Shown here: positions 38,329 through 48,494 of the stretch, one piece after another | Position numbering within the stretch: position 1 is the first letter of the stretch | Layout of the letters: every line of letters begins with the position of its first letter | Assembly: GCA_013911135.1 (NCBI GenBank) | Contig: JACERO010000070.1 | Span: 15,263 to 79,262, forward strand | DNA: 64,000 nucleotides | Direction: 5' to 3' | Origin: Nitrosopumilus sp. | Lineage (GTDB): Archaea; Thermoproteota; Nitrososphaeria; Nitrososphaerales; Nitrosopumilaceae | Notes under the pieces: model-generated | What the model was told of the DNA's origin: nothing | The model's database searches: none | What the model saw: the letters and a program-made list of their open reading frames with translations, nothing else | Program-made: the position numbers and the translations under genes

Positions 38329-39528
38329 ATGACTCAAAAAGGAATTCTTGCATTCTCTGGAGGACTAGACACTTCAGTTGTTGTAAAATATCTACAAGAA
38401 GAACACAACATGGATGTCATTACAGTAACAGTAGATGTTGGACAAGGTGGTGATAGTAAAAAAATTGCAGCTAAAGCAAAAAAACTTGGTGTAAAAAAAC
38501 ATTACAACATTGATGCACGAAAAGAATTTGTTAAAGATTACATTTTTCCATCAATTAAAGCCAATGCACTTTATCAGAAAAAATATTGTCTTGCAACAGC
38601 ACTTGCAAGACCATTAATTGCAGAAAAAGTTTTAGAGATTGCAAAAAAAGAAAAAGTAACATCACTAGCACATGGATGCTCAGGTAAAGGAAATGATCAA
38701 GTACGATTTGATATCACATTACAATCAGGTTCCAACCTACCAATCATTGCTCCAATTCGAGACAAAAACTTGGATAGGGATACTGAATTAAAGTTTGCAA
38801 AAAAACATGGAATTGAAATTGATGCTGTGGCAAAAAAATTCAGCATTGATCAAAACTTGTGGGGACGTGCAATTGAAGGAGGAGTATTAGAAGATCCATA
38901 CAACGAACCACCTGATGATGCATTCATTTGGGTTAAAACAAAAAATTTACCAGACAAGCCAACGTATTTGGAAATTAAATTTGAAAAAGGAATTCCAGTC
39001 AAAGTTGATGACAAAGTAATGAATTCTCAAAAACTAATTGAATACATCAACAAAAAAGCAGGTGCCGCAGGTGTCGGAATAGTTGATCATATTGAAGACA
39101 GAGTTGTTGGAATAAAATCACGTGAAGTATATGAAACTCCTGCAGCAACTTGTTTGATTGAAGCGCATGCAGATTTAGAAAAGATGGTTCATACTAAACA
39201 TGAGAACAAGTTCAAATCCCTAATAGATGATGAATGGGCATACTTGGTATATTCAGGGCTTTGGCAAGACCCTCTCAAAGCAGACTTGGATGGATTTATC
39301 GAAACGTCACAAAATCCAGTATCAGGAAGCGTGAAACTAAAGTTGTATAAAGGAAGCTTGAGGGTAGTTGGAAGAAAATCCAAGAATTCATTGTACAATC
39401 ATGGTATTGCAACTTATGGCTCAGAATCAACATTTGATCAAAGATTAGCCAAAGGATTTGTAGAATTGTGGGGAATGCAGACAACAGAAGCTAATAAATT
39501 ACAAAAGAAAAGGTCAAAAAAAATATGA
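38329..39528 (+). CDS. argG: Argininosuccinate synthase
   Basis: LAFSGGLDTS, LARPLIA, HGCSGKGNDQVRF, SIDQNLWG and SREVYE. Confidence 0.97.
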   Translation: MTQKGILAFSGGLDTSVVVKYLQEEHNMDVITVTVDVGQGGDSKKIAAKAKKLGVKKHYNIDARKEFVKDYIFPSIKANALYQKKYCLATALARPLIAEKVLEIAKKEKVTSLAHGCSGKGNDQVRFDITLQSGSNLPIIAPIRDKNLDRDTELKFAKKHGIEIDAVAKKFSIDQNLWGRAIEGGVLEDPYNEPPDDAFIWVKTKNLPDKPTYLEIKFEKGIPVKVDDKVMNSQKLIEYINKKAGAAGVGIVDHIEDRVVGIKSREVYETPAATCLIEAHADLEKMVHTKHENKFKSLIDDEWAYLVYSGLWQDPLKADLDGFIETSQNPVSGSVKLKLYKGSLRVVGRKSKNSLYNHGIATYGSESTFDQRLAKGFVELWGMQTTEANKLQKKRSKKI

Positions 39529-39692
39529 ACTGCCCAGAATGTGATGCAACATTAAACATTCCAGACGATGCCTCAGTTGGAGAAATAATCTCCTGTCCTG
39601 ATTGCGGCGCTGACTTTGAAATCGCAAAAAAAGACGGATCAAATTTAGAGCTAAAGCAAGCAGAAACCGTAGGCGAAGACTGGGGAGAGTAA
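39525..39692 (+). CDS. lysW: Amino-group carrier protein LysW/ArgW (copy 1, C-terminal EDWGE)
   Basis: Manual translation MNCPECDATLNIPDDASVGEIISCPDCGADFEIAKKDGSNLELKQAETVGEDWGE (55 aa). Confidence 0.95.
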   Translation: MNCPECDATLNIPDDASVGEIISCPDCGADFEIAKKDGSNLELKQAETVGEDWGE

Positions 39693-40549
39693 TGTCAAAA
39701 GTATGTATCGTATTTGATCGTCTGAGAACAGAAGAAAAAATGCTTCAAAAAGAAGCAGTAGGACTTGGACACGATGCAGTGATGCTAGATGCAAAGATTA
39801 CTCAAATTAACACAGATAGTAAAAAAGAAGACTATGATTTTGGGAATGTTGTTTTAGAAAGATGTGTCAGTTATTTTAGAGGACTTCACTTTACTGCTAG
39901 TTTAGAATTTATGGACATTCCAGTTCTAAACAAGTTTGATGTTGCAAGCATTTGTGGAAACAAGATGTTCATGACTTTGCTTTTAAAAAAAAATAATGTT
40001 CCAACACCAAAAACATACTTTTCATTTTCAGGTGAAAGTGCAGCAGAGAATTTAGAAAAAGTTGGATATCCTCTAGTGATCAAACCAGTAATAGGAAGTT
40101 GGGGTAGAGGAGTAATGCCAATCAAAGATAAAGATGCAATGGAGGCAGTTTTGGAAATAAGAGAAGTCACAGATGGTCCACATGATAGAATTTACTACTT
40201 GCAGGAATTAATTAAAAGACCACCAAGAGATATCAGAGTGATCACTATAGGAGATGAGCCAATTGCAGCCATGTACAGAAAATCATCAGGTGAATTTAAG
40301 ACAAACATAGCACTAGGAGCAGATCCAGAACTTTGTGAGATCACAAAAGAGATGGAGGATATGGCAGTAAAAGCATCAAAAGCTATGGGTGGCGGAATTT
40401 TAGGAATAGACATGATGGAAGACGAAGAACGAGGCCTAGTTGTACACGAAGTTAACAATACAGTGGAATTCAAAGGATTGGCAAGAGTTGCACAACGAAA
40501 CATTCCAAAAGAAATGATAGAATTTGCTCTAAACTACGTTAGGAAATAA
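39692..40549 (+). CDS. argX: LysW-amino acid ligase, RimK/LysX family; ArgX-like (glutamate)
   Basis: ATP-grasp KPVIGSWGRG, FKTNIALG and EVNNTVEFKGL (Gly after EFK, ArgX-like); follows argG-lysW. Confidence 0.75.
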   Translation: MSKVCIVFDRLRTEEKMLQKEAVGLGHDAVMLDAKITQINTDSKKEDYDFGNVVLERCVSYFRGLHFTASLEFMDIPVLNKFDVASICGNKMFMTLLLKKNNVPTPKTYFSFSGESAAENLEKVGYPLVIKPVIGSWGRGVMPIKDKDAMEAVLEIREVTDGPHDRIYYLQELIKRPPRDIRVITIGDEPIAAMYRKSSGEFKTNIALGADPELCEITKEMEDMAVKASKAMGGGILGIDMMEDEERGLVVHEVNNTVEFKGLARVAQRNIPKEMIEFALNYVRK

Positions 40550-40577: not shown

Positions 40578-41624
40578 ATGAAAGTAGGTATTGTAGGAGC
40601 ATCAGGATATGTAGGTGGAGAAACACTTCGTCTTCTTGTTAATCATCCAGATGTTGAGATAGCTATGGTGACATCAAGGCAACATGTTGGCGAATATCTT
40701 CATAGAGTACAACCAAGTTTGAAAGGATTTACAGATCTTACTTTCTCAGAATTAGATTATGATAAATTAACTGACAAATGTGATCTAGTGTTCACTGCTG
40801 TTCCACATGGTACAGCAACTGAAATTGTAAAGACACTATATGATAGAGGTACCAAAATAATTGATTTGAGTGCTGATTACAGATTACATGATCAAGAGGC
40901 ATATGACAAATGGTATGGATGGGAGCATCCACATCCAGATTATTTACCAAAATCAGTTTTTGGAGTTCCTGAATTACACAGAGAAGAAATCAAAAAATCA
41001 CAACTTGTGTCTTGTCCAGGATGTATGGCAGTTACATCAATATTAGCACTGGCTCCATTAATTCGAAATAACATTATTGATACAGAACACATCATTGTAG
41101 ATTCAAAGATTGGATCTTCTGGTGCAGGTTCTGGTTCTGGAACTGCACATGCAATGAGAGCAGGAGTGATCAGACCATACAAACCAGCAAAGCACAGACA
41201 CACTGGTGAGATTGAACAAGAACTTAGTGAAATTGCAGGAAAGAAGATCAAAGTTTCAATGAGTCCACATGCAGTTGATGTAGTTCGCGGAATTTTATGT
41301 ACAAACCATACATTCATGCAAAAAAACATTGATGAAAAAGAATTGTGGAAATTGTATCGTCAAGCTTATGGTGATGAAAAATTTATCAGACTTATTCGTG
41401 ACAAAAAGGGATTATACAAATTCCCAGATCCAAAGTTCTTGGTTGGTTCAAACTTTTGCGATATTGGATTTGATATAGACGAAGACAATAACAGATTGAT
41501 TGCATTATCTGCATCAGATAACTTGATGAAAGGTGCAGCAGGCTCTGCCATTCAAAATATGAATATTATGTGTGGTTTTGATGAAATGGATGGACTAAGA
41601 TATACTCCATTAACTCCTGTTTAG
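40578..41624 (+). CDS. lysY: [LysW]-aminoadipyl/glutamyl phosphate reductase (LysY/ArgC)
   Basis: GASGYVG, DLSADYRL, PGCMA, SGAG, HRH..EI and DNLMKGAAG. Confidence 0.93.
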   Translation: MKVGIVGASGYVGGETLRLLVNHPDVEIAMVTSRQHVGEYLHRVQPSLKGFTDLTFSELDYDKLTDKCDLVFTAVPHGTATEIVKTLYDRGTKIIDLSADYRLHDQEAYDKWYGWEHPHPDYLPKSVFGVPELHREEIKKSQLVSCPGCMAVTSILALAPLIRNNIIDTEHIIVDSKIGSSGAGSGSGTAHAMRAGVIRPYKPAKHRHTGEIEQELSEIAGKKIKVSMSPHAVDVVRGILCTNHTFMQKNIDEKELWKLYRQAYGDEKFIRLIRDKKGLYKFPDPKFLVGSNFCDIGFDIDEDNNRLIALSASDNLMKGAAGSAIQNMNIMCGFDEMDGLRYTPLTPV

Positions 41625-41626
41625 AA

Positions 41627-42430
41627 ATGATCACAATCAAAATTGGTGGAAGTGTAGTAGATAATTTACATTCATCTACAATTGCAGACATTAAAAAAAT
41701 AGTAAAATCAGAAGGAGTGATTTTAGTTCATGGTGGTGGAAAAGAAGTTACAAAAGTTTGTAAACAGCTTGGAAAAGAACCAAAATTTGTAACATCATCT
41801 AGTGGAATCAAAAGCAGATATACTGATAAAGAGACTGCAGAAATTTTTACAATGGTAATATCTGGTAGAATAAACAAGACAATTGTTCAGTTGCTTCAAA
41901 AAAATGGTATTAATGCAATTGGTCTTTCAGGAGTTGATGCCAGAGTTATAGAAGCTGATAGAAAAAAGAAGCTTCTCATAATCAATGAAAAAGGCAGAAA
42001 ACAAGCAATTGATGGAGGCTACACTGGAAAAATTACCAAAATAAACTCGGAATTCATCAAATCACTCTTAGAACAAGGACTTACACCTGTTATTTCACCC
42101 ATAGCAATTAGTGAAGAGTCAGAATTTCTCAATGTTGATGGAGACCGGGCTGCAGCATATGTAGCTGGCAAAGTCGGTACTGATAAAGTATTATTCATTA
42201 CAGACGTTGACGGACTTTTAATGGATGACAAACTTGTTTCCAAACTAACATTAGCAGAAGCAAAAGAAATCAGACCAAAAATAGGACCAGGAATGGAGAA
42301 GAAGATTTTAGCAGCTACTGAAGCATTAGATATGGGTGTCAAAGAGGCATTGATTGCAAATGGTCAAAAAGAAAATCCAATATCATCTGCAATTGCACAT
42401 GATAATTGTACGGTGATTGAACATGAGTGA
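41627..42430 (+). CDS. lysZ: [LysW]-aminoadipate/glutamate kinase (LysZ/ArgB)
   Basis: IKIGGS, VHGGG, SRYTD, LNVDGD, TDVDG and GMEKK. Confidence 0.93.
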   Translation: MITIKIGGSVVDNLHSSTIADIKKIVKSEGVILVHGGGKEVTKVCKQLGKEPKFVTSSSGIKSRYTDKETAEIFTMVISGRINKTIVQLLQKNGINAIGLSGVDARVIEADRKKKLLIINEKGRKQAIDGGYTGKITKINSEFIKSLLEQGLTPVISPIAISEESEFLNVDGDRAAAYVAGKVGTDKVLFITDVDGLLMDDKLVSKLTLAEAKEIRPKIGPGMEKKILAATEALDMGVKEALIANGQKENPISSAIAHDNCTVIEHE

Positions 42431-43604
42431 AGATCAATTTATGGGAAATCTCTATCAGAGATTTCCAGTTACAATTGAAAAAGGAGTTGGAGCTCATGTA
42501 TGGGATGTTGATGGAAAAGAATACATTGACTGCATGGGGGGATATGGTGTTGCACTAGTAGGTCATCAAAATCAAAGAGTCAACAATGCAATAAAAGAAC
42601 AACTTGATAAAATTATCACTGTTCATAGTTCACTATACAACAAAACAAGAGAAGAGTTTTTGAAAATACTAATTGGACTAGCTCCCAAAGGACTCACACA
42701 AGTTCATCTAAACAATAGTGGAGCAGAAGCAATAGAAGCTGCAATAAAGTTTGCAAGAAAGTTTACAGGTAAAAAAGGAATGGTTGCAATGAAAGGTTCC
42801 TATCATGGAAAATCGTTAGGTGCATTGTCATTAACATTTGGTCCAAAATATAGAAAACCATTTCAACCACTTGTTGAGAAAGTTTCTTTTGCATCATTTG
42901 GAGATATAGAATCACTTCGTTTAGCAATTGATGATGATACAGCTTTTGTAATTTTAGAACCAATTCAAGGTGAGAGTGGAATTATTGTTGCACCAGAAGG
43001 ATTTTTGCAAGAGGTGAGAAAACTTTGTGATGAGAAAGGAATTCTGTTAATTTTTGACGAAATACAAGCTGGTTTAGGTCGAACTGGACGATTATGGGCT
43101 TGTGATCATTGGAATACTGCACCAGATATTTTATGTCTGGCAAAAGGAATAGCAGGAGGAGTGCCAATGGGTGCAACTCTTGTAAGACCAAACATTTTAT
43201 CTGCAATGAACAAAGGAGAGCATTCATCAACATTTGGAGGAAATCCAATATCTTGTGCAGCAGGAATTGCAGCTCTTAAGGCATTAACAGAAGATGGGTT
43301 AATTGAGAATTCTGAGAAGATGGGGAAAATTTTTAGAGAAGGATTAGAGAAATTAAAAGAAAAACATACTGTGATTAGAGAGATTCGTGGAAAAGGACTC
43401 ATGATAGGAATAGAGATGAAATTTGAAATCAAAGACATTCTAATGGCGTTAATAAAAGAAGGTATTCTAATGCTATACTCGGGAAGAAACATACTAAGAA
43501 TTCTTCCACCATTAGTAATATCTGAAAATGACATAACAAAAGTTTTACATGCTCTTGATTCTATACTAACTGAAGAGGAGCAAAAACGTAATGTACAAGG
43601 ATAA
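42417..43604 (+). CDS. lysJ: [LysW]-semialdehyde aminotransferase (LysJ/ArgD), class III PLP
   Basis: SGAEAIEAA, SYHGK, EPIQGESG, FDEIQAGLGRTG, AKGIAGG and HSSTFGGNP. Confidence 0.93.
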   Translation: MNMSEDQFMGNLYQRFPVTIEKGVGAHVWDVDGKEYIDCMGGYGVALVGHQNQRVNNAIKEQLDKIITVHSSLYNKTREEFLKILIGLAPKGLTQVHLNNSGAEAIEAAIKFARKFTGKKGMVAMKGSYHGKSLGALSLTFGPKYRKPFQPLVEKVSFASFGDIESLRLAIDDDTAFVILEPIQGESGIIVAPEGFLQEVRKLCDEKGILLIFDEIQAGLGRTGRLWACDHWNTAPDILCLAKGIAGGVPMGATLVRPNILSAMNKGEHSSTFGGNPISCAAGIAALKALTEDGLIENSEKMGKIFREGLEKLKEKHTVIREIRGKGLMIGIEMKFEIKDILMALIKEGILMLYSGRNILRILPPLVISENDITKVLHALDSILTEEEQKRNVQG

Positions 43605-44010
43605 AATAGACCAAAAGATTATCGAATATCTAAAAGAAAACTCTAGAGAATCATTTGTAGATATTGGTAAAAAATTAAAGCTTTCTGAATCAGCAGTAAG
43701 AAGACGTGTAAAAAATCTATTAGGTAGTGGAGTAATCAAAAAATTCACTTTAGAACTTGGAGAAGAGAATGCTACCAGTGCAATTGTTTTAGTTTCAGTA
43801 GATTCTGCAACAGACACATCCAAAGTTTCTATGAAACTTACTAAATTAGAAGGAGTAAAAACAGTTTATGAAATTACAGGTCAATATGACATCACAGTAA
43901 TTATTAGTGCAGCAACAATTGCTGAAATTAATAATAGTATTGATGCATTAAGAAAGATTCCAGGTGTAGTTGATACAAATACTGTAATTATTTTGAAAAA
44001 AGTAATCTAA
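43591..44010 (+). CDS. lysM: Lrp/AsnC-family regulator LysM
   Basis: DKIDQKIIEYL..NSR.SF..IGKKL.LSE.AVRRR HTH and a C-terminal RAM domain EITGQYD. Confidence 0.88.
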   Translation: MYKDKIDQKIIEYLKENSRESFVDIGKKLKLSESAVRRRVKNLLGSGVIKKFTLELGEENATSAIVLVSVDSATDTSKVSMKLTKLEGVKTVYEITGQYDITVIISAATIAEINNSIDALRKIPGVVDTNTVIILKKVI

Positions 44011-44126: not shown

Positions 44127-45293
44127 ATGAATGATCCGAATCACTATGCAAATGTGTACAATGCATTTGACAAAAATCCAAAGAAGATTAGAATTCTAGA
44201 CAGTACTTTAAGAGAAGGAGAACAACATCCAGGTGTTTCATTTACAAACAAACAAAGAATTCAGATTGCATGGATGTTAGATTATTTTGGAGTTGATCAA
44301 ATTGAAATCTCGCCAGTTATATCAAAAGATCATAAAGAGGCAACTAAGACAATCATCAAACAAGGATTAACTGCAGATATTGTTTCTCATGGACGTGCTC
44401 TTAAATCAGATATTGATATTTCATTGGATTGTGATGCAAAATGGTGTGCAGCATATTTAGGAATTTCAGATATTCATCTAAAAGATAAATTACATATTTC
44501 AAGAGAAGAAGCACTTAACAGAGCAGTAGAGACTGTAGAGTATGCAAAATCTCATGGTCTTAAAATTAGATTTACAGTAGAAGATGGAAGTAGAACAGAA
44601 CCAGAATTTTTGCTCAAAGTTTGCAAGTCAATTGAAGAAGCAGGTGTAGATAGAATCAGTCTTCCAGATACAGTTGGAATTTTACGTCCAATTGGAATGT
44701 ATAATTTTGTTAAGAAGGTTAGAGAGGTAGTAGATGTACCATTAGATGCACATGTTCACAATGATATTGGATTTGCAGTAGCAAATGCATTTTCAGCATG
44801 TGACGCAGGAGTTGATCAGATTCATACTACTATTGATGGTATTGGAGAAAGAACAGGAATTCCACCTCTTGCAGAAGTTGCAGTAGCACTTACGTATCTA
44901 TACAAATCACCAAACGATTTTAGATTAGATATGTTATTGGATTTGTCTAGATTAATTGAAGACTATACATCAATCAAACCATATGATTCAAAACCAATTG
45001 TAGGATCGTCTGCATACAAACACAAAGCAGGAACACACCTAGCAGCAATTATCAGAAACCCTGCAGCCTATGAGCCTATACCACCAAGAGCAGTTGGAAA
45101 CAGAAGAAGAATTGTCTTTGGTGAATTGGCAGGAAAGACAGGAGCTGCATATCTAATGTCATTATTAGGACTTGAAAAAGACGATAAAGGTGCAAAAGCA
45201 GTTGCAGCTGGATTGAAGAATCTTAGAATGGGTGATCTTATTGAGATTCCACTTGAAGACAGACTTGAAAAAAAGATAATTAATGATAAATAG
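44127..45293 (+). CDS. Homocitrate synthase (LeuA family)
   Basis: LDSTLREGEQ, LPDTVG, HVHNDIG, GIGERTG and HKAGTH; context among lys genes. Confidence 0.82.
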   Translation: MNDPNHYANVYNAFDKNPKKIRILDSTLREGEQHPGVSFTNKQRIQIAWMLDYFGVDQIEISPVISKDHKEATKTIIKQGLTADIVSHGRALKSDIDISLDCDAKWCAAYLGISDIHLKDKLHISREEALNRAVETVEYAKSHGLKIRFTVEDGSRTEPEFLLKVCKSIEEAGVDRISLPDTVGILRPIGMYNFVKKVREVVDVPLDAHVHNDIGFAVANAFSACDAGVDQIHTTIDGIGERTGIPPLAEVAVALTYLYKSPNDFRLDMLLDLSRLIEDYTSIKPYDSKPIVGSSAYKHKAGTHLAAIIRNPAAYEPIPPRAVGNRRRIVFGELAGKTGAAYLMSLLGLEKDDKGAKAVAAGLKNLRMGDLIEIPLEDRLEKKIINDK

Positions 45294-45296
45294 AGA

Positions 45297-45310
45297 GAGG
45301 AGGTGAGGAG
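45297..45310 (+). promoter_or_regulatory. Extended Shine-Dalgarno tract before lysW2
   Basis: GAGGAGGTGAGGAG ends 5 nt before the ATG at 45316. Confidence 0.6.
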
Positions 45311-45315
45311 AAAAT

Positions 45316-45483
45316 ATGTCAAAATGTGAAGAATGTGATGCAGATATTTCCGTACCAAGTGATGCACTTGAAGGAGAGATTGTAACATGTCCAGAATGTG
45401 GCGCAAGTTTTGAATTAGCAAAAGGTTCAGATGGTTTCGATCTAAAGCCTGCCCAAACGGTTGGCGAGGATTGGGGACAGTGA
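45316..45483 (+). CDS. lysW: LysW-family carrier protein (copy 2, C-terminal EDWGQ)
   Basis: Manual translation MSKCEECDADISVPSDALEGEIVTCPECGASFELAKGSDGFDLKPAQTVGEDWGQ (55 aa); ends gga cag tga. Confidence 0.92.
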   Translation: MSKCEECDADISVPSDALEGEIVTCPECGASFELAKGSDGFDLKPAQTVGEDWGQ

Positions 45484-46328
45484 GTCCTGACGTTACAATT
45501 CTTTACGATAACATCCGTTGGGAAGAAAAAGCTCTGCTAGAAGCCGGTAAAAAAAATAACATCAACGTTCAGATGGTTAATTGTAAGAAACTAGCATTAG
45601 ATTTAGAAAAAAAGCCTGAAGATTATGGAGTAGTTATTCAGAGGTGTGTGAGTTACTATAGAAACTTGCATTCAACTGCAGCCTTAGAAGGACTTGGAGT
45701 CAAGGTAATTAATTGTCTCAATACAGGTATTTTTGCAGGGAATAAATTATTCACCCACATGTTACTAAAGAAATTTGGAGTACCAATACCTGATGCAACA
45801 GTTGCTTTTTCAAAAGAAGCAGCTTTGCAAGCATTAGAAACACAAGGATTTCCAAAAGTAATCAAACCAACAGTTGGTAGTTGGGGTAGATTAATTTCAA
45901 AATTAAATGATAAAGAATCAGCTGATGGAATTATTGAGAGTAGAGAAAAGATGTACCCAATTCACCAAGTCCATTACCTAGAAGAATTTGTAAAAAGACC
46001 ACCAAGAGACATCAGAGCTATAATGGTGGGAGACAAAATAGTTGCAGCAATTTACAGAACTTCTGAAAATGGAAATTGGAAAACGAATATGGCACTTGGA
46101 GGAGTAGCAGAACCATGTAAGGTTACACCAGAAATGGAAGAAATGTGTATTAAGGCAAAAAATGCAGTTCAAGGGGATATCGTAGGTGTAGATTTGATGG
46201 AAAGTGATGAGAAAGGACTAGTCGTACATGAAGTTAACAATACAACAGAATACAAAAACACAGTTAGAGTGTGTGAAGTAGACATTCCATTCTTAATGCT
46301 GGATTATGCACTAAAGATAGGCAAGTAA
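45471..46328 (+). CDS. lysX: LysW-alpha-aminoadipate ligase (probable start GTG at 45480)
   Basis: KPTVGSWGR, WKTNMALGG and EVNNTTEYKNT (Asn-Thr, LysX-type). Confidence 0.82.
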   Translation: MGTVSPDVTILYDNIRWEEKALLEAGKKNNINVQMVNCKKLALDLEKKPEDYGVVIQRCVSYYRNLHSTAALEGLGVKVINCLNTGIFAGNKLFTHMLLKKFGVPIPDATVAFSKEAALQALETQGFPKVIKPTVGSWGRLISKLNDKESADGIIESREKMYPIHQVHYLEEFVKRPPRDIRAIMVGDKIVAAIYRTSENGNWKTNMALGGVAEPCKVTPEMEEMCIKAKNAVQGDIVGVDLMESDEKGLVVHEVNNTTEYKNTVRVCEVDIPFLMLDYALKIGK

Positions 46329-46329
46329 A

Positions 46330-47457
46330 TTGAATTCTCATTTTACAGTAACACCAAGTTTTACAGTGAAGGCACTTGAGAAAGCACTCAGACTTTACAC
46401 ACCATCACTCAGTGAAAAACCAATGGCAGATTTTTTAGTTGATAAATGTGATGATTTAGGATTTGATGATATTCAAATTGATGAAGTAGGAAATGTAATT
46501 GCAAAGAAAGGAACAGGTTCACCAAAAATTATGTTATGTGGACACATGGATGTTGTTCCAGGAAAAGTCAAAGTTAGAAAAGAAGGAGATTCACTTTATG
46601 GACGTGGAGCATCAGATGCAAAAGCACCATTAATGGCAATGCTATTTGCTGCAGCATCAATTCAAAATAACAATGGAACTATAATTTTTGTAGCAGCTGT
46701 AGATGAAGAAGGTAGTGCTACAGGAATAAAAAATCTGGTAAAAAAAGAGATGGATGTTGATTATGCAGTTTTTGGAGAACCAAGTGGAGTTAAACAAGTC
46801 ACAATTGCATACAAAGGAAGATTAGCAATTAATCTCAAAGTTAGCGTTGAGGATAGTTCTCATGCAAGTGCACCATGGCTTTCAAAAAATGCAATTCATG
46901 AATCAATGATTTTTGCAAAAGAACTCAAAGATAGATTAGAAGCAGATCAAGATGGCAAAACGAAAGGAATGCTACTGACTGCAACTATGACTGAAATTAA
47001 AGGAGGAATTAGTCATAACGTAACTCCAAAAGAATGTGAAACGGTTTTTGATATTAGAATTCCAGTAGACATGAACTGTAAATCCATTGAGCAAAAAATT
47101 GCAACACTAGTAAAAGAAATTTCAAAGGAAAGAGATGTAGAGGCATTTTATTCAATTCTTGATGAAACAGAACCATTTGAAGCAGCTCACAATTCACCAA
47201 TAGTTAGAGCATTTACTCTTGGAATTATCGAGGTAGAGCATTCAAGACCAACTCTAATTAGAAAAACAGGCACAGGTGACATGAATGTTCTTGGAAATCA
47301 GTGGAATATTCCCGTGGTAACATATGGTCCAGGAGATCCTCACGAAGCCCATACAATTGATGAGAAGGTTTCAATTGATGAGTATCTAAGAGGAATAGAG
47401 ATTCTCAAGAAAACTCTTCAGCATTTAAAAAGACTTCATGATAAAAAGATGCAGTAA
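46330..47457 (+). CDS. lysK: [LysW]-lysine/ornithine hydrolase (LysK/ArgE, M20 family)
   Basis: CGHMDVV, GRGASDAK, DEEG, GEPS, GTGDMN and YGPGD..AHT.DE. Confidence 0.92.
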   Translation: MNSHFTVTPSFTVKALEKALRLYTPSLSEKPMADFLVDKCDDLGFDDIQIDEVGNVIAKKGTGSPKIMLCGHMDVVPGKVKVRKEGDSLYGRGASDAKAPLMAMLFAAASIQNNNGTIIFVAAVDEEGSATGIKNLVKKEMDVDYAVFGEPSGVKQVTIAYKGRLAINLKVSVEDSSHASAPWLSKNAIHESMIFAKELKDRLEADQDGKTKGMLLTATMTEIKGGISHNVTPKECETVFDIRIPVDMNCKSIEQKIATLVKEISKERDVEAFYSILDETEPFEAAHNSPIVRAFTLGIIEVEHSRPTLIRKTGTGDMNVLGNQWNIPVVTYGPGDPHEAHTIDEKVSIDEYLRGIEILKKTLQHLKRLHDKKMQ

Positions 47458-48494
47458 TGCTTTGGTTTGTAGGTTTAGGAATTTCGGGATTCAAATCAAT
47501 TCCTAATGAAGCACTAGATATTTTATCAAAGGCAGATATCATCTATCTTGAACAATTTACCAGTCCAATTGGAAAATCAGATCTGGTTAAAATAAAAAAT
47601 GCAACAAAAGGAGAATTCGAACCTGCAAAGAGATGGTTGGTAGAAGATGGAAATGAGATTTTACAAAATGCAAAGAAGAAGAAAGTGGTTTTGTTATCAT
47701 ATGGAGATCCATACATTGCAACAACACATATTGAATTAAGAACAAGAGCAATAAAAGAAAAAATAAAAACATTTTCTATTCATGCTTCATCATCACTTAC
47801 TTCAATGATAGGAGAATGTGGTTTGCATTTTTACAAAGTTGGGAGAATTGCAACAATAATGAGTGAAATGAAATCACTGACAACACCATACTATCTAATT
47901 TACAAAAATGTTATTGAGGGAAATCATACTATACTTCTCTTAGAATACAATCAAGACAAAGATTTCTTCTTAGATCCTAAAGATGCATTAAATGGATTAC
48001 TAGAAACAGAGGAAGGACAGAGAAGAAATGTCATAAGCTTGTCTACTTATGCTATAGTTGCATCAAGAATTGGATTCAAAGATCAAACAATTATTTCAGG
48101 AAAAATATCTAGCTTGAAGAAAAGAGATTTTGCAAAACCGCCACATACTGTAATTATTCCAGGTAGATTACACTTTACTGAATCAGATGCCTTGAAGATA
48201 TTAGGTGAATGTATTGATGAACCATTTGATAATTCTGAAAAAACAAAAAAGATTTCAGTTCAGATGATGAAAAAATATGTTCCAATGGTAAGAGAAGCAC
48301 TTGAAGAGATTAAACCATACTATAAAGATCAAAAAGAATATCAAGTGATTTTAGAAAATGCAGAATTGTACATACTAGATGCAGAGAAATTTCTAGAAGA
48401 TGGGCAAGATGAGGTAGCAATTTTGAGTATTGGGTATGCAGATGGTCTTGTTGATGCATTGAGACTGACAAAAGGCCTTGATCCAAAGATGTAA
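47457..48494 (+). CDS. dph5: Diphthine synthase with a C-terminal DUF357-like domain
   Basis: LWFVGLG, YLEQFTS, LSYGDP.IATTH, HASS, GLHFYKVG and HT.LLL. The tail has AELY..DAEKFL..G...A..SIGYADGL.DAL. Confidence 0.88.
   Translation: MLWFVGLGISGFKSIPNEALDILSKADIIYLEQFTSPIGKSDLVKIKNATKGEFEPAKRWLVEDGNEILQNAKKKKVVLLSYGDPYIATTHIELRTRAIKEKIKTFSIHASSSLTSMIGECGLHFYKVGRIATIMSEMKSLTTPYYLIYKNVIEGNHTILLLEYNQDKDFFLDPKDALNGLLETEEGQRRNVISLSTYAIVASRIGFKDQTIISGKISSLKKRDFAKPPHTVIIPGRLHFTESDALKILGECIDEPFDNSEKTKKISVQMMKKYVPMVREALEEIKPYYKDQKEYQVILENAELYILDAEKFLEDGQDEVAILSIGYADGLVDALRLTKGLDPKM

Follow-up and report, generated by a model that had tools for sequence, protein, structure and literature searches.

Amino-group carrier proteins of the LysW/ArgW family have been described from Thermus thermophilus, Sulfolobus/Sulfurisphaera, Thermococcus kodakarensis and Natrinema (PDB 3WWL, 3VPB and 5K2M), and LysW is the textbook case of carrier-mediated amino-acid synthesis. 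These proteins are composed of about 55 residues and feature a four-Cys zinc ribbon, an acidic surface and an EDWG tail, and their operons encode the partner enzymes LysX/ArgX, LysZ, LysY, LysJ and LysK. The GSWGR motif of the ligase recognises the C-terminal EDWG motif of the carrier (PMC10433800), and the substrate is borne on the γ-carboxyl of the Glu at the C terminus. In Natrinema ArgW, the E54A substitution led to auxotrophy, identifying the terminal Glu as essential (PMC10433800). The published LysW mechanisms and structures that we found all rest on this residue, and the literature searched treats it as invariant and essential. According to PMC6038301, which cites Ouchi 2013, a single LysW in Sulfolobus serves both ligases.

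The closest functional comparison outside this family is Pup, which works alike and is not a homologue. Like LysW, Pup is a small protein serving as carrier or tag, and an ATP-dependent ligase activates the γ-carboxylate of its C-terminal Glu for attachment to an amine. The terminal residue of Pup is encoded as Gln in some actinobacteria and as Glu in others, and Dop both cleaves Pup-lysine isopeptides and deamidates PupGln (PMC8599861). Unlike LysW, Pup is joined to a protein lysine, not to a free amino acid, and the glutamine-synthetase-like PafA and Dop are unrelated in fold to the ATP-grasp enzyme LysX and the M20 enzyme LysK. Deamidation of LysW is our own proposal in the present study.

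Ammonia-oxidising archaea rank with the most abundant microbes of the ocean and of soil and synthesise lysine and arginine themselves. Here, we describe a LysW from this group in which the terminal residue is encoded as Gln. We assess it overall as an amino-group carrier whose cap is genetically encoded and which is general among ammonia-oxidising archaea; its uncapping step, or an alternative chemistry, is undescribed.

A Gln-ended carrier in a conserved lys/arg cluster

In the window, that is, the whole 64,000-nucleotide stretch of the Nitrosopumilus sp. contig that was analysed, we identified a cluster of 11 genes spanning 9 kb in the order argG-lysW1-argX-lysY-lysZ-lysJ-lysM-HCS-lysW2-lysX-lysK (Table 1). 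This cluster is conserved across the order Nitrososphaerales, where the homocitrate synthase-like (HCS) gene keeps its place before lysW2. The set of partner enzymes is consistent with that of known LysW/ArgW operons, and, as in Sulfolobus, two ligases with LysX-type and ArgX-type signatures are present. Unlike the known systems, the window encodes two specialised carriers instead of one. The original prediction had placed lysW2 next to the lysine-type ligase, between HCS and an Asn-Thr LysX, and the gene order HCS-lysW2-lysX-lysK confirmed this placement.

Table 1. Features of the lys/arg cluster in the window.
Feature	Coordinates	Strand	Description	Basis or remark
argG	38329..39528	+	Argininosuccinate synthase	Opens the conserved cluster
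lysW1	39525..39692	+	Canonical carrier, tail EDWGE	Translation; NF041070, 92 bits
argX	39692..40549	+	Second ATP-grasp ligase, glutamate (ArgX)-like signature ...EFKGL	45% identical to lysX
lysY/argC	40578..41624	+	Reductase	TIGR01850, 420 bits; single copy
lysZ/argB	41627..42430	+	[LysW]-aminoadipate/glutamate kinase	NF010662, 302 bits; single copy
lysJ/argD	42417..43604	+	Aminotransferase common to both carriers	Family match
lysM	43591..44010	+	Lrp-type regulator of lysine genes	NF040947, 190 bits (cut-off 180)
HCS	44127..45293	+	Homocitrate synthase-like, first step towards aminoadipate	Family matches and context
Shine-Dalgarno GGAGGTGA	45299..45306	+	9 nt 5′ of the lysW2 ATG	Direct reading
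lysW2	45316..45483	+	55-aa Zn-ribbon amino-group carrier protein, tail EDWGQ	ORF and translation; NF041070, PF21344
Terminal codon CAG (Gln)	45478..45480	+	C at base 1	Glu forms have G
lysX	45480..46328	+	Lysine-type (Asn-Thr) ATP-grasp ligase	TIGR02144, 324 bits; motif EYKNT
lysK	46330..47457	+	M20 [LysW]-lysine/ornithine hydrolase, candidate deamidase	Pfam M20; 5XOY homologue, E = 1.4e-50

The LysW2 translation comprises 55 residues (MSKCEECDADISVPSDALEGEIVTCPECGASFELAKGSDGFDLKPAQTVGEDWGQ) and contains two CxxC pairs (C4/C7 and C25/C28). The protein scored 89 bits against NF041070, the curated NCBIfam model of LysW/ArgW carriers, for which the cut-off is 75 and the LysW1 score 92 bits, and 47.7 bits against PF21344 (cut-off 27). 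HMM comparison assigned it to the same fold family as the known carriers, and over its full length it aligned with LysW chains of known structure (3VPB_E, 3WWL_A and 5K2M_E), all three of which end in Glu. The EDWG motif is retained (...VGEDWG-Q), as is the GSWGR motif of both ligases (VGSWGRL in LysX and IGSWGRG in ArgX). However, at the position where the known carriers have the substrate-bearing Glu, LysW2 encodes Gln. The 3′ end of the gene reads GGA CAG TGA, and reading of codons and translations bore out that lysW2 ends in EDWGQ and the first copy, which starts at position 39525, in EDWGE. Base 1 of the terminal codon is the sole difference between lysW2 and the canonical carrier.

The third base of this CAG codon, a G, doubles as the first base of the lysX GTG start, and the end of lysW2 thus overlaps lysX (GTGA) inside the lys/arg cluster, as expected of co-translated genes. 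We consider the GTG at position 45480 the most likely lysX start because an ATG occupies this place in relatives that read CAATGA. As had been pointed out beforehand, Gln is not dictated by the overlap, and Glu-ended relatives read GAG TGA with an identical overlap. The earlier description of lysW2 as intact and maintained also agrees with our analysis, in which the ORF and its Shine-Dalgarno sequence were found undamaged, as were the Zn ligands and the EDWG motif. Public annotation calls Gln-ended proteins plainly LysW/ArgW. In the literature searched we found no description of a Gln-ended LysW or of LysW deamidation, and no mention of the Nmar locus tags that we guessed for the Nitrosopumilus maritimus copies of the cluster genes.

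The Asn-Thr signature found in LysX (...EYKNT) is that of the aminoadipate-specific LysX type (PMC10433800, PMC12998189). The name homocitrate synthase is partly based on context, with every family match of this gene falling under the curated cut-off: 375 bits against TIGR02146 (LysS; cut-off 413.55) and, for the best match, 416 bits against NF002085, a model of the 2-isopropylmalate synthase subfamily (cut-off 517).

The genome that contains the window is 98.6% complete. It carries a single lysK, and we identified no second LysY, LysZ or LysK in it; its LysJ paralogues outside the cluster are distant ones only (about 28–30% identity). With a single LysZ, LysY and LysK and the LysJ of the cluster, the downstream enzymes would therefore be common to LysW1 and LysW2. 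Neither a LysA nor an ArgJ homologue was found in this genome, nor was ArgJ found in six ammonia-oxidiser genomes, and lysine and arginine therefore appear to depend on the lys/arg cluster. An amidase gene inserted in the 11-gene cluster was not present in any family examined. The gene 3′ of lysK was considered as an amidase and rejected, being a diphthine-synthase-like methylase fused to DUF357.

Distribution of terminal Gln and Glu

The EDWGQ tail is present in 112 of the 120 closest protein clusters (90% identity). A DNA pattern for E-D-W-G-(Q/E)-stop, which requires the EDWG motif, was searched for in 27 Nitrosopumilaceae genera, represented by 73 genomes. It matched in 71 of these, and in every one lysW2 has C at the first base of its last codon and ends in Gln; two of these genomes read CAA TGA, a synonymous form that keeps the Gln. 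The upstream copy, LysW1, is Glu-ended in all Nitrosopumilaceae matches except one. Gln was observed on LysW1 of one Cenarchaeum genome (L029), with Glu in its congeners L030 and L045; L029 and L030 are distinguished by this final residue alone. A few close Nitrosopumilus lineages carry GAG (Glu) on LysW2, and two Nitrosopumilus LysW2 proteins (P0290 and P0302) are identical save for the last residue, which is Glu in one and Gln in the other. Both residues are therefore viable. The original prediction had held that GAG in close relatives would point to a sequencing error or a private mutation in the window; GAG occurs in these few lineages, but nearly all relatives carry Gln.

In Nitrososphaeraceae, for which the pattern search covered 61 genomes from 18 genera, all four combinations of terminal residues occur. 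Gln on both LysW copies is the state of the majority of genera and of sampled genomes. Gln on the upstream and Glu on the downstream copy was found in two genera and one more genome, the reverse in one genus, and Glu on both copies in one genome. A sister-family genome (G353) has Glu on the upstream and Gln on the downstream copy. The terminal residue of LysW across Nitrososphaerales thus shows a Glu/Gln dimorphism like that of Pup. In three complete single-contig genomes of one genus, lysW1 has been lost, argG abuts argX and the remaining LysW is Gln-ended. The family model, applied to one of these genomes (G377), detected one LysW only, again Gln-ended.

Non-ammonia-oxidising relatives (L031–L033, L038, L041 and L043) have a single, Glu-ended LysW, and in a phylum-wide sample every true LysW visible outside the order is Glu-ended. 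Because of this, the distribution of sequences places the appearance of the Gln form with the ammonia oxidisers and with carrier duplication. EDWGQ-stop matches elsewhere in the phylum were rejected as chance matches, with none of the eight tested being LysW. When contigs were searched with aligned Gln-ended LysW sequences (50% representatives), all hits lay in Nitrososphaerales and relatives. A few metagenome gene calls (e.g., P0006 and P0011), which read the TGA as Trp and continue into the lysX frame, raised stop read-through or an alternative genetic code as candidates; both were set aside as calling artefacts. Two further Gln-ended clusters (P0144 and P0138) lie on short contigs with small unannotated ORFs and no lys genes, for which PHROGs and Pfam returned nothing useful.

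Changes between Glu and Gln

On a maximum-likelihood tree of LysY, LysZ and LysJ from 50 loci, the terminal state changed at least three times in each LysW paralogue, compared with 7–16 changes at neighbouring synonymous sites. The GEDWG motif is retained in every locus used for this count, although the pattern searches themselves presuppose EDWG, and the flips occurred without any other change in the carrier tail. About three flips would roughly match the neutral expectation for a C↔G site, because one third of the possible substitutions at that base is viable and the synonymous sites change as often as stated. On our reading, Gln and Glu are close to interchangeable in the ammonia oxidisers, and Gln is untolerated elsewhere. 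Interchangeability confined to the ammonia oxidisers would imply some lineage-wide permissive factor.

The fixation of Gln on LysW2 of Nitrosopumilaceae (71/71) is weak evidence that hints at selection for Gln, since about three flips would be expected under neutrality and none is seen among the species representatives. Such selection, if real, would better suit a lasting role of the Gln or a regulatory use of the cap.

Ligases and LysK of Gln-ended carriers

We compared 90 ligase sequences, each paired with its own carrier, and found no alignment column among them that follows the Glu/Gln state of the partner. Of the ligase columns, 42 reach 95% conservation or more, and these are unbroken in both LysX groups and in ArgX with Gln partners. 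The group of ArgX with Glu partners, which included outgroup rows, shows 15 breaks in these 42 columns, and the breaks probably stem from those rows. Nearest-neighbour ligase pairs of opposite state differ at variable positions only and in no consistent direction. ArgX has one clade-specific position (GSWGR-G), and in LysX most of the clade-specific positions are as would be expected from its specificity for aminoadipate.

For LysK, 36 sequences from ammonia oxidisers were compared with 28 from Glu-only lineages of the phylum. The metal-binding and catalytic motifs are common to both sets. Within the GRGA-x-DAK motif, the residue before Asp96 is a serine (Ser95) in all 36 ammonia-oxidiser sequences (100%), whereas T. 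thermophilus LysK (PDB 5XOY) and 96% of the outgroup sequences have a valine here. Asp96 itself is presumably the metal-bridging ligand of M20 enzymes. Two histidines are also clade-specific: His338, which precedes His341 of the conserved C-terminal motif by three residues, and His229 of the lid domain, in a loop whose alignment with 5XOY is ambiguous and can be shifted. Ser95, His338 and His229 could reflect a remodelled LysK active site, and they are equally compatible with clade history or drift.

Function of the Gln-ended carrier

The terminal Gln of these carriers is real and conserved, is evolutionarily interchangeable with Glu, and is present on sole carriers. That the codon is a sequencing or assembly error, or that lysW2 is a decaying gene, could be argued from its departure from the textbook motif and from nothing further. 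This reading has a negligible probability given that the Gln codon is common to hundreds of independent assemblies and that the gene is intact in all the respects listed above; the clusters (112/120) and genomes (71/71) with Gln likewise dispose of an error or a private mutation. Another suggestion had been that LysW2-Gln acts as a decoy or regulator in competition for the Lys/Arg enzymes, with LysW1 serving both pathways. The genome of the window does encode a canonical LysW1 that could in principle serve both ligases, in line with the single LysW of Sulfolobus. However, many genomes have Gln-ended LysW only, be it on both copies or, in complete genomes, on the sole copy; several genera have the reverse arrangement, with Gln on LysW1 and Glu on LysW2; and in all families the translation of LysW2 and lysX is coupled. 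We therefore regard the decoy reading as refuted. Because Gln-only genomes exist and the lysine and arginine pathways look necessary, the Gln-ended LysW must, as far as genome content can tell, work as a carrier. The idea that the terminal Gln acts as a gate on lysine synthesis specifically, as had been proposed, is refuted as well, since the Gln also occurs on LysW1, on both carriers or on a sole carrier.

We agree with the original prediction that the side chain of Gln cannot be acyl-phosphorylated as that of Glu is. The ammonia oxidisers must then remove the cap from the carrier or else join the substrate to it by an undescribed route. Our best explanation, to which we give an even chance, is that the Gln represents an encoded cap that would be deamidated to Glu, likeliest by LysK, with normal LysX chemistry thereafter. 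In this mechanism, LysW2 would be a genuine amino-group carrier made as a capped pro-form whose C-terminal Gln is the γ-amide of the required Glu. An amidohydrolase would strip the amide nitrogen once to yield LysW2-Glu55, and LysX would phosphorylate the γ-carboxylate and join α-aminoadipate to it. The tethered substrate would be modified by LysZ, LysY and LysJ, and lysine would be released by LysK, returning the carrier in its Glu form, so that the cap would matter only before the first cycle. We favour deamidation because one set of LysZ, LysY and LysK, together with LysJ, handles Glu- and Gln-ended carriers in the same cell, because the flips leave the carrier tail otherwise unchanged, and because no ligase column follows the terminal residue. 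Against the cap, a role played once per molecule would poorly explain the Gln of LysW2 in 71/71 Nitrosopumilaceae, for which a permanent role of the Gln would account.

Both the deamidation and the identity of the enzyme are inferred from these comparisons, and they differ in strength. That the Gln is deamidated before loading, taking all candidate enzymes together, appears probable. LysK is a tentative candidate for this step, short of an even chance; another hydrolase would be an unlikely agent, and the ligases themselves a quite doubtful one. The uncapping enzyme would likeliest be LysK because LysW-γ-Glu-NH2 corresponds to the LysK substrate LysW-γ-Glu-NH-Lys with ammonia in place of lysine. 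Dop, which takes Pup off proteins and also deamidates PupGln, offers an exact precedent for this logic. M20 enzymes of the ArgE/DapE/LysK type are, however, not known to hydrolyse a primary amide. The broader proposition, that lysine and arginine carriers are Gln-capped throughout the ammonia-oxidising archaea and that LysK has a second activity as a C-terminal glutamine deamidase which licenses the first step, is possible and is put forward with reserve.

Deamidation by an enzyme other than LysK, either an unrecognised amidase (e.g., of the peptidyl-glutaminase type) or ATP-dependent hydrolysis by LysX/ArgX, draws equally on all the evidence for deamidation, and Dop, the Pup deamidase, is homologous to the Pup ligase. 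We consider it rather unlikely, since the conserved 11-gene cluster contains no extra gene in any family examined, an EgtC/YafJ-like Cys hydrolase was not found in the genome of the window, and no candidate can be named. The other main alternative is that the Gln would never be removed and that the carrier would be loaded by a different chemistry. In a chemically plausible version, LysX/ArgX would activate the α-carboxylate of the terminal Gln to form a normal peptide bond, which LysK would have to cleave as a carboxypeptidase. RimK, a relative of LysX, activates the C-terminal α-carboxylate of protein S6. LysX indeed belongs to the RimK α-L-glutamate ligase family (TIGR00768, 284 bits), and the M20 family contains carboxypeptidases, a glutamate carboxypeptidase model being among the LysK matches. 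The likeness to RimK, the S6 glutamate ligase, lies in homology and in the activation of a protein C-terminal carboxylate and bears on this α-carboxyl version only; unlike LysX, RimK extends the α-carboxylate with glutamates and has no carrier cycle and no release enzyme. In the second version, the ligase would phosphorylate the amide oxygen and the substrate amine would displace ammonia, for which there is a proposed precedent in the attack of the amide oxygen on ATP suggested for PupGln in Dop (PMC8599861). A permanent role of the Gln would also account for its presence on LysW2 in all 71 Nitrosopumilaceae. However, two linkages that differ in length and charge would then fall to one LysZ, LysY and LysK within one cell, the α-peptide being two atoms shorter than the γ-isopeptide and missing one charge. 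The flips without other change in the carrier tail, the lack of a consistent ligase change at those flips and a flip rate that looks near neutral also argue against retention of the Gln, which we regard as unlikely. Of the routes named in the original prediction, deamidation is thus retained as the favoured reading and dropped as a lysine-specific gate, and loading through the α-carboxyl or by transamidation is less parsimonious, with one LysZ, LysY and LysK for both carriers and no ligase change that follows the flips.

If the carriers are Gln-encoded as described, current models lack a step in each of two essential pathways, and those built at genome scale for Nitrosopumilus would be incomplete. 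The missing step would be either a protein C-terminal deamidase, possibly a new M20 activity, or a new form of substrate tethering. Uncapping by LysK would mean that primary metabolism had arrived independently at the Pup/Dop logic, and a retained Gln, with activation of the α-carboxyl or of the amide, would represent a new carrier-protein chemistry. The natural Glu and Gln variants provide ready-made controls. They also offer a second, independent system for asking why a conjugation-competent Glu is encoded as Gln, a question that is still open for Pup.

Gln-ended LysW operons with a Cys hydrolase

Three clusters of Gln-ended LysW (50%-identity representatives, on metagenome contigs) were checked for their surroundings; the third operon was cut off. 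The two complete operons are of the bacterial type and encode an EDWGQ LysW in a lysX-lysY-lysZ-lysJ operon from which LysK is missing. Both also encode a protein of 212–220 residues that starts with MCR and shows weak similarity to GATase_4/6 (class-II amidotransferase). A Cys hydrolase in place of LysK fits the notion that the release enzyme also uncaps the carrier. These operons resemble the window in the terminal EDWGQ of a LysW amid lys genes, and differ from it in that LysK is absent there, whereas the genome of the window encodes LysK and no such hydrolase. LysK is retained throughout the ammonia oxidisers. We found no published account of operons that combine a Gln-ended LysW with a Cys hydrolase in the literature searched.

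In the genome of the window, PF13230 matched only PurF- and GlmS-sized ORFs, and neither tblastn nor a profile built from the two operon hydrolases returned anything. Among 16 other ammonia-oxidiser genomes, PF13230, which is weak for this diverged family, matched PurF/GlmS-sized frames and two ORFs of about 295 residues at less than 25 bits. When the operon-hydrolase profile was run on 151 genomes of the order, none was detected in Nitrosopumilaceae or Nitrososphaeraceae; homologues were identified only in four other families, and in all four of the loci examined they were located away from lys genes.

Carrier genes in Nitrososphaeraceae clusters

The lysW1 gene is absent from three complete genomes that belong to a single Nitrososphaeraceae genus (G377, G430 and G441; loci L093, L094 and L095, respectively); there, argG is directly followed by argX with a gap of ~25 nt. 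The sole Gln-ended LysW of these genomes must therefore act with both ligases. The same three genomes, together with the Nitrososphaeraceae genomes G389 and G407, encode a LysA-like protein, possibly a true diaminopimelate decarboxylase, that scores 235–255 bits, under the family cut-off of 298; no such decarboxylase was identified in the window's own genome. Only one cluster in Nitrososphaeraceae carries two Glu-ended carriers (L076, on G413:C28), in a genome that is 81% complete. The homocitrate synthase gene and lysZ of this cluster are each split across frames, which could reflect assembly quality or decay.

Clade-specific residues in LysK and ArgX and the gene downstream of lysK

Two ammonia-oxidiser-specific substitutions of LysK, Ser95 and His338, are localised near conserved active-site residues. 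Position 95 is occupied by serine in the ammonia oxidisers, whereas a valine is found elsewhere, including in the solved T. thermophilus LysK (PDB 5XOY). A further clade-specific residue, His229, belongs to the lid domain, in a loop where the alignment is ambiguous. In ArgX, residue 140 lies immediately C-terminal to the motif gripping the EDWG tail; the sequence reads GSWGR-G in ammonia oxidisers, in contrast to GSWGR-L in the outgroup ligases and in the window LysX. This residue does not track the Glu/Gln state of the carrier.

The start of the gene that follows lysK, which encodes a methylase-DUF357 fusion, overlaps the lysK stop codon (ATGA). Because this gene is also found downstream of lysK in the Nitrososphaeraceae clusters, the synteny is order-wide. 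The gene has no obvious link to the lysine/arginine pathway.

Coordinates of the genes discussed (window positions unless a locus is named)
Feature	Location	Strand	Remark
argX	39692–40549		ligase; residue 140
lysK	46330–47457		Ser95, His229, His338
Diphthine-synthase-like tetrapyrrole-methylase domain + DUF357 fusion	47457–48494	+	directly 3' of lysK
MCR-starting protein, 212–220 aa	L128, 5756–6418; L130, 8113–8751		operons with Gln-ended LysW, without LysK

Other Gln-ended LysW proteins and a Cys hydrolase

The operons L128 and L130 come from metagenome contigs and read as bacterial-type. Their MCR-starting Cys hydrolases share 29% identity with each other and show weak similarity to GATase_4/GATase_6, under the Pfam thresholds. 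Homologues encoded by ORFs of ~245 aa occur in four further families of the order Nitrososphaerales (f67, f73, f74 and f77; genomes G515, G528, G555 and G572 among others), and at the four homologue loci L132–L135, from two of these families, no lys genes adjoin.

Several metagenome gene calls (clusters P0006, P0011, P0027 and P0034) translate the TGA of LysW2 as Trp and continue in the lysX frame (…EDWGQW…). Such extensions are gene-calling artefacts and could mask the terminal residue in databases.

LysW-like Zn-ribbon proteins with a GEDWGQ end were also observed on metagenome contigs, in clusters P0144 (L046–L049) and P0138 (L050). None of these five loci has lysX, lysY or lysZ nearby; the neighbouring genes are small ORFs without a family match and, in one case, a retropepsin-like gene. 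These proteins may be part of a mobile element or virus, or may have a different use.
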